Shown here one piece after another: positions 53,689-57,078 of a stretch of DNA of 64,000 nucleotides. The position numbers and the translations under genes are program-made. Numbering within the stretch: the stretch's first letter is position 1; every line of letters starts with the position of its first letter. Source of the stretch: Longimicrobiales bacterium (GTDB lineage: Bacteria; Gemmatimonadota; Gemmatimonadetes; Longimicrobiales; Gaopeijiaceae); NCBI GenBank assembly GCA_965226375.1, contig CBDDCX010000007.1:256001-320000 (forward strand). Reading direction: 5' to 3'. The notes beneath the pieces are model-generated. The model searched no databases. It had not been told where the DNA came from and saw only the letters and a list, made by a program, of their open reading frames with translations.

Positions 53689-55076
53689 GTGGCGCGCATC
53701 GAGGTTCCCATGCCGCAGATGGGTGAGTCCATCGCCGAAGGCACCGTATCGAAGTGGCTGAAGAACGTCGGCGACACGGTCGAACGAGACGAGCCCATCC
53801 TGGAGATCTCCACCGATAAGGTGGACGCCGAGATCCCTTCCCCGCAGTCGGGGACGCTTGTGGAGGTAAAGGTCCAGGAAGGGGAGACCGTGGAGGTGGG
53901 TACCGTCGTCGCGTTCATCGACACCGAGGGTGGTGCTCCGACCGTGGCTACACCGACCGAGGTGGCCGAGCCCATTCCCGTCGCGCCTCCCGTGGCTGAA
54001 GAGGTCCCGTCGCCGGTTGCCGAGTCCGCTTCTCCACCGACTGCTTCTGGTCCGTCCGAGGATGGAGATCCGCAATCGGCCGAGGACCGCTTGCGGACGA
54101 AGTCGACCCCGGTGGTCCGGCGCATCGCCGAGGAGCATGGGATTACCATCGGTGACGTGTCGGGGACGGGCCACGCCGGCCGGGTCACCAAGCAGGACAT
54201 TCTCAACTTCATAGAGGGAGGGGGACCAAAGGCACAGCCTGCGGTTGTTGCAGCCCCCGCCCCCGACGTGGCGCCGTCGGCTGCTCCTGTGTCACCGGCG
54301 CCATCGGTGGTGCCGTCCGATCTCTGGGCTGCCTTCTACGGTGAGGTCCAGCACCCCGAGTTTCCGGTCCCGAAGGGGACCAGGTCCTGCCGATGGATAA
54401 GATCCGTCGGCTCACGGCGGAACACATGGTCATGGCCAAGCGCGTGGCTCCGCATGTGCATTCGTTCATTGAGGTCGACTTCTCCCGCGTGGACAGCATC
54501 CGTGCGGCGAACAAGGCCAAGTGGGCGGAGCAGGGGGCCAGGGTCAGCTACACGGCCTTCGTGGCGTGGGCGTGTTCGCGACTGCTGCGCAGCTTTCCCA
54601 ACGTCAACGGCACCGTGTCGGGCAATAACATCATTCACCGAGGCAGCGTGAATATCGGGATGGCAGTGGATCTCGATCCCGGACTCATCGTCCCGGTCAT
54701 CCACGACACCGACGATCTGAGCCTGGTCGGCATCGGCAAGAAGATCATCGATCTGGCTGAACGCGCACGCTCTCGGCAGCTCAACCCGTCGGAGATTCAG
54801 GGTGCGACCTTCTCCATTACCAACCCGGGTGTCCTCGGCACGCTGGTCGGGTTGCCCGTCATCCCGAAAGGGACGTCGGCGATCCTTGGCACGGGGGCGA
54901 TCGCAAAGCGCACCGTGGTGGTGGAGGATCCCGCCACGGGCACCGACGCCATCGCCATCAGGAAGCGATCGCTGTTTTCCCTCGGGTACGATCACCGACT
55001 CGTGGATGGTGCCGACGCCGCGAGGTTCCTCTCGGGACTCAAAGCGCTCCTGGAGGACTTCCCCGAGGACGCGTAG
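53689..55076 (+). CDS. 2-oxoacid dehydrogenase E2 (dihydrolipoamide acyltransferase), frameshifted at ~54370
   Basis: Lipoyl domain TDKV and E3-binding domain, then the catalytic domain with DHRLVDG in a second frame. Confidence 0.88.
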
Positions 55077-55150: not shown

Positions 55151-55864
55151 GTGTCGGATCCTTCATACCCGAGTGACTCGCTGGAGTTGGAGGTGCGGGA
55201 TCTTGGCCTCGTGCCGTACGGTGAGGCGCTGGAGCTCCAAGCGGATCTGGTAGCGCGTCGACGCGCCGGTGAGGTGCCGGACCAACTCCTCCTCCTGGAG
55301 CATCCCCACGTCATAACGCTGGGTACGGGATCGCGTCCCGAGCACGTTTTGGCCGACGCGGCTCGGCGGGATGCACTCGGGGTCGAGCTCTTCGAGGTAG
55401 GTAGGGGTGGGGACGTGACCTATCATGGTCCCGGCCAACTCGTCGGCTATCCCGTGCTGGATCTCAAGCCCGACCGTCGAGATCTGCACCGCTATCTGCG
55501 AGACCTGGAGGCCATGCTCATTGCGGCCATGGGGGAGTTCGGTGTCCGAGGGGAGACCGTACCGGGGCTCACGGGCGTTTGGGTGGAGAGCCGCAAAGTA
55601 GCGGCCATCGGTGTCCGTGTGTCGTCCGGCTGGATCACCTCCCATGGTTTCGCGCTCAACGTGGACAGCGACCTCACCTACTATGAGACGATCGTGCCGT
55701 GTGGCATCGCCGACCGTACGGTCACATCGCTTTCCAAGGAGGCCGGCCGCTCGATCCGGGTCGCCGAGGTCGCTCCTGTCGTTCGCGAGGCTTTCGCTGA
55801 TACGTTTCAGCGGCGAATTCGTGTTGGCGGGCCAACAAATGAGGCCTCTGAAGAGGGTGTCTGA
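55151..55864 (+). CDS. lipB: Lipoyl(octanoyl) transferase
   Basis: LEHP, RGGDVTYHGPGQ, KVAAIG, HGFALN, PCG. Confidence 0.96.
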   Translation: MSDPSYPSDSLELEVRDLGLVPYGEALELQADLVARRRAGEVPDQLLLLEHPHVITLGTGSRPEHVLADAARRDALGVELFEVGRGGDVTYHGPGQLVGYPVLDLKPDRRDLHRYLRDLEAMLIAAMGEFGVRGETVPGLTGVWVESRKVAAIGVRVSSGWITSHGFALNVDSDLTYYETIVPCGIADRTVTSLSKEAGRSIRVAEVAPVVREAFADTFQRRIRVGGPTNEASEEGV

Positions 55865-56062
55865 GGTGACCTGGGGACTCCGTGGGTTTTTGAAATCCCG
55901 GCAGAAGATCTTGCCCGTCAATCCTTGGACAAGCCTCGAAGATCAATCTGTTTACGCTCGATTATGACCGGAGCAACGGCACTCCGGACTGTTTGTTAAC
56001 ATCGAATAGCATAACGAGTTACGGGATAATGCATGTTTTGTGCACGAGGTCGATCGAGAAGC

Positions 56063-56091
56063 TTGACGTTGGGCTGGAGCCTGCCCATACT
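56063..56091 (+). promoter_or_regulatory. sigma70-type promoter
   Basis: TTGACG-N17-CATACT. Confidence 0.7.
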
Positions 56092-56097
56092 GTAAGT

Positions 56098-56444
56098 GCG
56101 TTTCCGATGTGGTACGCTGAATCGATGGCGTTGGTCATCCCTTCATGTGGATCGCGAGACGCGTTTCATCGGACGGGACGCCGTAGCGGTGGAAGCGAAC
56201 CGAGGGTTGGACCTCGGTGAGCCGGCAGAGGAGCCGTTGGTCTCTGCTGAACCCTCCGGAGCTCGGAGGACCTGAAGTTGCTGACCGCGCGACGACGGGA
56301 TAAGGGAAGCTGAGTCAGCTGCCCGACTGAAGGTGAGCCGCAAGGCGATCTGGAAGGAGGGCGGGTTTCCAAACAAGACGAGGTTTCTACCAACGAAATA
56401 GGGGCCCTCGGGGCGGCTTGCCGCACCGAGGGCTTCTTTTTTTT
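56098..56444 (+). ncRNA. Unassigned structured non-coding RNA (~345 nt)
   Basis: Lies between a promoter and an intrinsic terminator; many nested helices; no convincing ORF. Confidence 0.6.
56404..56444 (+). terminator. Rho-independent terminator
   Basis: GCCCTCGG...CCGAGGGC stem followed by TTCTTTTTTTT. Confidence 0.88.
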
Positions 56445-56502: not shown

Positions 56503-57078
56503 CTATCCTTCGGGCGGGGCGTGCTCGAAGTAATCGAGATAACGGCCGTACTTGTCACGCTGCTCATCCAGCCAGAGCTCGTAACGGCTTTCAACCAGCC
56601 CCCCGGAAGCCGTTCGCTCGGTGGCCGCTCGCGTGGCGAGATGGTCGGCGTACTCGTTCTGGACATGGCCTTCGTGACCGCGAACCCAGCTCCACCGCAC
56701 GTCGTGTTTGGCGGCGATGCGATCGAGCTCCTGCCAGAGTTCCAGGTTCCCGATCTCTCCCCCCTTCCGCTTCCATCCACGCGACTTCCACCCCTTCAGC
56801 CACTCGGTCATTCCCTTGACGAGATACTGGCTGTCCGACACGAACCGGGCTCTACACGGACGCTTTCGCAGCAAGGTCAGCGCCTCGATCGCGCTCCGAA
56901 GTGCCATACGGTTGTTGGTCGTGTCCGGCTCTGAGACCCAATAGTCCCGGCGTACCCACTCATCGGCCGTCCAGTGCTCGACCAGACCGCCGGCGCCTCC
57001 GGGGTTGGCTCTGTCTTGGAACTGGTTGCCGAGGCAGGACTCATCGGCGTAGATGAAAATCTCGGGCGCTTCCGTCAT
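56503..57078 (-). CDS. rnhA: Ribonuclease HI
   Basis: YADESCLGN, TTNNRM, SDSQY, WVRGH, NEYAD. Confidence 0.93.
   Translation of the reverse strand: MTEAPEIFIYADESCLGNQFQDRANPGGAGGLVEHWTADEWVRRDYWVSEPDTTNNRMALRSAIEALTLLRKRPCRARFVSDSQYLVKGMTEWLKGWKSRGWKRKGGEIGNLELWQELDRIAAKHDVRWSWVRGHEGHVQNEYADHLATRAATERTASGGLVESRYELWLDEQRDKYGRYLDYFEHAPPEG

Follow-up and report, generated by a model that had tools for sequence, protein, structure and literature searches.

Comparison with described RNA classes

The hallmark of 6S RNA is a long rod with a central bubble that mimics an open promoter. Together with Ms1 (RF02566) and CoRP, 6S (RF00013) belongs to the abundant stand-alone RNAs, and Ms1 has a length of about 300 nt (PMC11077062, in excerpt). 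The raiA motif RNA (ModT, RF03072) is similarly a stand-alone, very abundant and pseudoknotted RNA with a housekeeping-sigma promoter and variable neighbours (PMC11706538, in excerpt). Found in Bacillota and Actinomycetota, it has helices P1–P8 and two pseudoknots within ∼215–260 nt, as far as the excerpted accounts go, and is a monomer by cryo-EM (PMC12286853, in excerpt). The latter source describes OLE, ROOL and GOLLD as ornate RNAs that form RNA-only oligomers and carry symmetric kissing loops whose palindromes switch. These are ∼550–830 nt in length, and prophages and tRNA arrays are frequent locations of ROOL and GOLLD. Finally, the ARRPOF RNA of a Fusobacterium plasmid contains consecutive hairpins and four pseudoknots in ∼255 nt and forms a homodimer through kissing loops (PMC12990946, in excerpt).

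The window analysed here is a 64,000-nt stretch of a contig from a Longimicrobiales (Gemmatimonadota) genome. A sequence-only reading of this DNA had proposed that a lineage-specific large non-coding RNA (ncRNA), possibly a 6S/Ms1-like RNA polymerase binder, lies between a lipB-like gene and rnhA. The Rfam scan that it called for found no family matching the window or 36 homolog loci when the whole of Rfam was used, including any model for ARRPOF, OLE, ROOL or GOLLD; matches at the gathering or E-value level were terminator-like or miRNA-like chance matches only. The models for tmRNA, RNase P RNA and SRP RNA have no match at the locus and each has one elsewhere in the genome, in agreement with the hallmarks of these RNAs having been judged missing. 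RF03072 likewise has no match at the locus. The same is true of RF00013 and RF02566 (the best Ms1 match in the genome, E 0.44, is on another contig), and a long closing stem with a central bubble is not seen, covariation giving instead successive hairpins with four pseudoknots; the RNA is therefore rejected as a member of the 6S or Ms1 families.

The ncRNA resembles ARRPOF in its consecutive hairpins and four pseudoknots; unlike ARRPOF, it is chromosomal, belongs to Gemmatimonadota, has its own promoter and terminator and has no plasmid match. With OLE, ROOL and GOLLD it shares the loop signature but neither the length nor the helix order, and it matches them neither in sequence nor by model. 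Two features of ornate homo-oligomeric RNAs are present, namely several covarying pseudoknots and palindrome-switching loops, the latter not in all members. It is like the raiA motif RNA in its promoter type, apparent abundance and variable neighbours, but has four pseudoknots rather than two and another helix order. Among the papers listed for ncRNA of Gemmatimonad, Gemmatimonas or Longimicrobiales, none describes it. Term searches of PMC8632094, PMC5737381 and a pair of 2026 preprints, covering the main text, give no mention of the phylum, and 'Gemmatimonas' was not listed for PMC11109978; the supplements of PMC11109978, PMC5737381 and the preprints could hold the family as an unnamed cluster. 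The class is apparently undescribed, being closest in kind to ARRPOF, OLE and raiA and a member of none.

The ncRNA gene and its neighbours

The gene is a real, stand-alone ncRNA gene of ∼345 nt on the forward strand (56098–56444), identified from its fold, homologs and covariation, with metatranscriptome contigs listed within 56115–56402. Its folding energy of −162.5 kcal/mol corresponds to a z of −4.15 and is equalled by 0 of 100 shuffles, which bears out the earlier description of a highly structured RNA. Upstream is an open reading frame (55151–55864, forward strand) that we take to be lipB-like from its translation. Downstream and convergent, as had been stated, lies rnhA (RNase HI; 56503–57078, reverse strand), a naming backed by an RNase_H family match on a syntenic homolog. 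The σ70-type promoter noted previously is present at 56063–56091 (−35 TTGACG, 17-nt spacer, −10 CATACT, forward strand). By itself this pattern is at chance level, with 1 found as against 0.4 ± 0.6 in shuffles; across homologs the two boxes hold their register and the spacer between them diverges. Transcription would start 7 nt past the −10 box and end at the U-tract. A GC-rich hairpin with a U-tract (56404–56444, forward strand), likely an intrinsic terminator, recurs in homologs, though its bulged form was not flagged by a simple terminator scanner; by a loose pattern, 74 of 106 members have a U-rich tract after this hairpin. The RNA has a promoter and terminator of its own and many copies away from lipB and rnhA, and so is independent of its neighbours and is not a 5′ UTR. 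The source genome carries one copy.

No open reading frame is common to 12 sampled members, and alignments of members are rich in frame-breaking indels. GAGGU in the P7 loop was considered as a Shine–Dalgarno sequence and rejected, as no start codon lies at a usable distance by eye. Two other observations concern the upstream DNA. A terminator-like hairpin (55968–55987) stands 3′ of lipB, between that gene and the ncRNA promoter, and a dihydrolipoamide acyltransferase-like gene (53689–55076) is divided between two overlapping frames (53689–54651 and 54393–55076), probably by a frameshift or an assembly indel.

Secondary structure and pseudoknots

Covariation supports a predicted fold in which a chain of hairpins is tied together by four long-range loop pairings (PK1–PK4). 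Mutual information among 57 homologs, calculated with no assumed structure, recovers P1, P2, P4, P7, P9 and P11 along with two long-range contacts; it ruled out a first pairing scheme in which P2 was a pseudoknot and GCGGUGG paired with the P9 loop. For 81 pairs in the 57 homologs 89.3% of cells are paired, compared with 36–47% in slid controls, and 512 cells hold double changes compared with 162 after shuffling (0 of 500 shuffles reach 512), 73 of the 81 pairs contributing, the structure having been drawn from the same sequences as were then counted. That set includes one truncated or rearranged member (L179), which was left out of the tree. On the tree, Watson–Crick double changes form 21% of changes at true pairs versus 1% at mismatched columns, with averages of 2.2 versus 0.12 per pair; the pseudoknots give 29% versus 0.3% in controls, and PK1–3 average 1.4 versus 0.02.

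All elements are on the forward strand. The 5′ domain (56098–56162) contains P1 (56098–56108/56151–56162), P2 (56115–56121/56142–56149) and P3 (56124–56139); in family f5 a small loop stands in place of P2 and P3. Directly after the 5′ strand of P1, GUGG (56109–56112) pairs with CCGC (56285–56288) in the P9 loop to form PK1, for which 97.8% of cells are paired and 3 of 4 pairs have double changes; fully switched versions occur, such as ATGAAC/GTTCAT in homolog L270. The P4 hairpin (56166–56192), supported by covariation, has the loop GACG (56177–56180). P6 (56195–56222) presents a UUGGA loop (56207–56211) that pairs with UCCAA (56368–56372) as PK2, a sequence that switches in L007, L012, L268 and L275. 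The most conserved motif is held by P7 (56223–56249), from which CGUUGG (56235–56240) pairs with CCAACG (56390–56395) as PK3. PK3/P7 is 98% paired in the covariation set, and at least 6 Watson–Crick pairs of PK3, in several sequence versions, are found in 90 of 106 members, a count that includes L179 and the mis-anchored L287. Distant members rewrite PK1, PK2 and PK3 wholly with complementarity kept.

P8 (56253–56269) carries the palindrome GAGCUC (56259–56264) and is followed by P9a/P9b (56271–56299), supported by mutual information and covariation, the loop of which carries the 3′ strand of PK1. The 3′ domain (56305–56388) is closed by P10 (56305–56310/56383–56388), assigned by eye, and contains P11 (56319–56364), assigned by covariation, which has a lineage-specific insertion capped by GCAA. 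In PK4, GCAAG (56340–56344) from a loop of the P11 domain pairs with CUUGC (56417–56421) in the loop of the terminal hairpin, so the terminator hairpin is likely part of the fold. At least 5 PK4 pairs are found in 74 of 128 members, compared with 30.0 ± 3.6 when partners are swapped, and 40 of the 128 have a weak PK4 or none; L179 and L287 were left out of this and all other counts from the metagenome members onward. The core from P4 to P10 is constant, and the 5′ domain and P11 differ in size among members. It is possible that not all four long-range contacts are intramolecular, and that some join separate copies of the RNA.

This arrangement replaces the single multibranch domain envisaged from the letters alone. 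All the complementary segments listed for it are present in the sequence, and three of its hairpins, ACCGAGG/CCTCGGT (P6), GCAGAG/CTCTGC (P7) and the GCAA hairpin, are kept in homologs. Neither TCCGATG/CATCGGA nor the GGTGGAAGC/GTTTCTACC helix, over its first 7 pairs, is supported: they are 71.5% paired and their double changes do not exceed those of shuffles (105 and 140 of 500). CCCTCC/GGAGGG and AGCTG/CAGCT compete with P8 and P11, which have covariation, and with P10, placed by eye.

Self-complementary loops and probable self-association

Two hairpin loops are self-complementary. A palindrome of at least 4 nt occupies the P8 loop (L8) in 47 of 57 members, compared with 17.9 ± 3.3 when shuffled, and in 45 of 77 diverse members, compared with 21.7 ± 3.7. 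It switches among nine tetramers, eight (AGCU, GAUC, AAUU, GGCC and others) plus UGCA, and palindromes are not enriched in the control loops L6 and L9. The P4 loop (L4) is GACG in 89 of 133 members and GAUA in 15, with GACA and GAUG in none, and the tree contains ∼6 independent switches between CG and UA. For each of these two positions the top covarying column is the other, adjacent position; as adjacent bases are unable to pair within one strand, this covariation points to pairing between two molecules. The same signature, GGCC changing to GAUC or AGCU and an adjacent dinucleotide switch, was used to argue for the intermolecular bridges of OLE and GOLLD (Kretsch et al., PMC12286853, in excerpt), and GACG tetraloops kiss in the murine leukaemia virus RNA dimer (PMC5874298, in excerpt). 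The P4 loop is accordingly predicted to be a symmetric kissing loop of two base pairs and GAGCUC of P8 a second symmetric kissing loop, through which the ncRNA would probably form a dimer or oligomer, as judged from these loop patterns.

Self-pairing is not universal, given that the P8 palindrome is missing in 32 of the 77 diverse members and a self-complementary L4 in about a fifth of members. GAUA in P4 could instead be a non-kissing tetraloop. The three copies read from genus g53 (L161, L162 and L168) have neither self-complementary loop and are candidates for a natural monomer.

Distribution and copying

The family comprises 158 copies, 138 of them distinct below 97% identity, from Gemmatimonadota genomes and metagenomes, located either in the lipB–rnhA gap or at unrelated loci, with up to 5 per genome. 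Conservation and covariation in these relatives, signs of transcription and the failure to match Rfam have sustained the proposal of a lineage-specific large ncRNA of a new class. Of 61 genomes searched with BLAST, 17 gave a match, the source genome among them; one of these matches (L017) is false and not a family member. In a scan of named genomes with a P3 motif, which sampled one sixteenth of the collection with one motif that some members lack and which is the sampling beyond Gemmatimonadota, 5 of 120 matches are full-length members, all five labelled Gemmatimonadota; the remainder are chance matches to a motif that is too loose. Among metagenome pattern matches 67 of 120 are members, their taxonomy being unassigned. 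All 3 viral pattern matches are due to chance, and phage and plasmid collections gave no match.

The lipB–rnhA regions of relatives, a comparison that had been advised, were collected by fetching the region 3′ of rnhA for 90 of the 141 family genomes with an rnhA match. The ncRNA is present at 40 of these 90 loci; in 34 of the 50 others the lipB–rnhA gap is no more than 160 nt and the genes nearly abut. With a core covariance model, 9 of 38 genomes that have none at this site were seen to carry copies at other loci. The lipB–rnhA site is common to families f1 and f3. Stop codons occur within the rnhA match of 4 of the 141 genomes (G208, G244, G254 and G280).

By family, the ncRNA was found in 11 of 12 genomes of f3 (10 of 11 minus one unpublished genome), with up to 5 copies each, in 1 of 12 of f2, in 3 of 16 of f5 in one sample, plus others found earlier, in 1 of 8 of f7, in 0 of 6 of f6, f8 and f9 and in 0 of 10 genomes of other classes, these searches having scored 83 of the thousands of candidates per genome, so that a miss means not found rather than absent. 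On the same footing it was not found in f4, with 0 of 16 genomes (two weak matches were read) and, when a broader model was used, 0 of 38, the two sets having three genomes in common. The pattern matches in f4 looked like coding chance matches, as did those of a reversed-pattern control. Matches to model R1 weaker than ∼E 1e-4 were also mostly coding chance matches, except for the three copies of genus g53. In that genus the ncRNA lies 3′ of rplU–rpmA, and its 5′ domain is enlarged and made up of purine-rich hairpins; an apparent tandem array there proved to be a single RNA with this larger domain.

Relocated copies lie beside genes for unrelated enzymes and transporters, and no common partner gene, transposase, integrase or reverse transcriptase occurs among the 59 neighbouring proteins. 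Paralog pairs and duplicates share untranscribed DNA 5′ of the start, and copying at the DNA level is therefore likely. In one case (L313, 6429–7014 and 8028–8613) a unit of 586 nt containing the upstream region, RNA and terminator is duplicated with 99.7% identity on either side of a DUF5715 gene, which is either a recent duplication or an assembly artefact.

Upstream control elements

Approximately 41 nt 5′ of the −35 box, at 55996–56022, is an inverted motif TTAAC-N17-GTTAC with a YAA-N4-TTR half-site. The half-site is likely an IHF site by the consensus for that protein. It is found in 17 of 39 members having a σ70-like promoter, with 2.2 expected from shuffles, and in 13 of the 39 it stands 40–42 nt 5′ of the −35 box. 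Under strict patterns 70 of 106 members have a σ70-like promoter and 3 a σ54-type promoter. Four relocated copies (L272, L273, L275 and L276) have σ54-type motifs (TGGCACG-N4-TTGCA or close) in place of the σ70 boxes, three of which pass the strict pattern. Copies from family f5 (L152–L154, L156–L158, L279 and L338) share a GGGAWTYCCC-like inverted motif ∼40–50 nt 5′ of the start, a possible regulator site.

Expression in environmental RNA

The ncRNA is transcribed and present in RNA libraries. Among 24 listed runs, 12 both hold part of the stretch and are recorded as RNA. Four runs, each from a different study, were compared, and in all four the contigs accumulate on the gene, with summed contig depths of 34 to 198,000 on two ncRNA bins, 0 on adjacent bins and 0–30 on neighbouring genes; the discrete 56098–56444 transcript that had been suggested as a check is beyond what contig depth can resolve, since strand and ends are not given by it. 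Peak-bin sums exceed those of the source genome's tmRNA locus in all four (69 versus 21, 197,862 versus 19,206, 118,414 versus 91,186 and 5,286 versus 195), a weak measure that is a hint of abundance only, because it is built from contigs of runs selected for containing this stretch, with relatives summed. In a sponge run (X1) a 232-nt piece of the ncRNA has no differences at depth 71, and tmRNA pieces with one difference are at depth 2–4. The cellular level may be very high.

Proposed function

We favour, with a probability of about one half, the reading that this folded, four-pseudoknot and likely self-pairing ncRNA is abundant and works in trans, serving a protein or complex as its scaffold or sponge. 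The transcript would fold into hairpins locked by PK1–PK4, copies would associate through L4 and L8 into a particle, and the particle would bind its partner stoichiometrically. The apparent abundance, the scarcity of invariant unpaired bases and the dispensability of the RNA suit the role of scaffold or sponge more than that of enzyme. The Y RNA partner Ro60 (TROVE, PF05731) was not found in the source genome (G000), which is 90% complete.

The strongest competitor, itself unlikely, is that the RNA binds RNA polymerase, filling the role of 6S, Ms1 or CoRP through a fold unrelated to theirs. Corynebacteria, which are without 6S and Ms1, have their own unrelated polymerase-binding RNA (PMC11077062, in excerpt), and the ncRNA appears very abundant. 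No 6S scored above the Rfam cut-off in the source genome or 40 relatives (41 Gemmatimonadota genomes), with a model that passes the cut-off in only 4 of 14 control genomes, and no Ms1 was found. However, 6S is also undetected in family f4, where the ncRNA was not found, so the two show no complementary distribution. In addition, there is neither a long duplex with a central bubble nor a promoter mimic, and the single strands are consumed by pseudoknots.

The zapA–rny gap is a usual site of 6S. It was considered as a 6S locus and rejected, as it holds a promoter and leader hairpin and no 6S-like rod; ygfA was not found. In this gap (L324, 1777–1946, in G000:C7) a promoter (TTGCGT-17-TATTGT) and leader hairpin 5′ of an RNase Y-like gene are conserved in five genomes.

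Somewhat less probable still is a ribozyme or ligand-binding RNA with its active site around the P7 loop, PK3 and the P10 junction. With four pseudoknots the tertiary fold should be precise, the unpaired GRGGU purines 5′ of PK3 are the best conserved letters, and large pseudoknotted RNAs have been argued to have sophisticated functions (PMC5737381, in excerpt). Yet few unpaired bases are invariant, only ∼19 of 135 core positions reaching 90% and most of these being helical, and there is no likeness to a ribozyme or riboswitch family and no conserved downstream gene. A selfish or passively mobile RNA cassette of little benefit to the host, suggested by the way in which the lipB–rnhA gap either holds it or cleanly lacks it and by the relocated and duplicated copies, is improbable, as the neighbours contain no mobility gene, the duplicates include untranscribed DNA, f1 and f3 share the site and the phage and plasmid collections gave no match. 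Cis-regulation of lipB or rnhA, a tRNA-like 3′ module and a small protein gene are already largely refuted as readings, since despite the frequent lipB–rnhA synteny and an R-CCA directly 3′ of P10 in 126 of 141 members the RNA has its own promoter, terminator and distant copies, the CCA is internal and both pairs and changes with L7, and the sampled members share no reading frame.

A scaffold or sponge in trans remains the preferred reading; a more far-reaching possibility is tentative. The ncRNA may represent a new class of RNA-only particle, in which a ∼300-nt, four-pseudoknot RNA with two symmetric kissing loops would form dimers or closed cages, be one of the non-ribosomal RNAs present at the highest levels in uncultured Gemmatimonadota from sponge, sediment and soil, be expressed as paralogs under σ70 or σ54 and have an activity unlike that of any described bacterial RNA, be it catalysis, ligand storage or polymerase sequestration. 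It is rare for a bacterial RNA to be both large and heavily pseudoknotted, and novel folds and RNA-only assemblies have come from the few classes known. The present RNA is of a size that permits direct transcription and imaging, and its more than 130 natural variants, with forms that lack the self-pairing loops, offer built-in controls. Its host phylum is abundant and poorly studied, with no 6S RNA detected here, and the class would open up tests of how RNA oligomers evolve and of whether, and by which RNA, polymerase is regulated in these bacteria.
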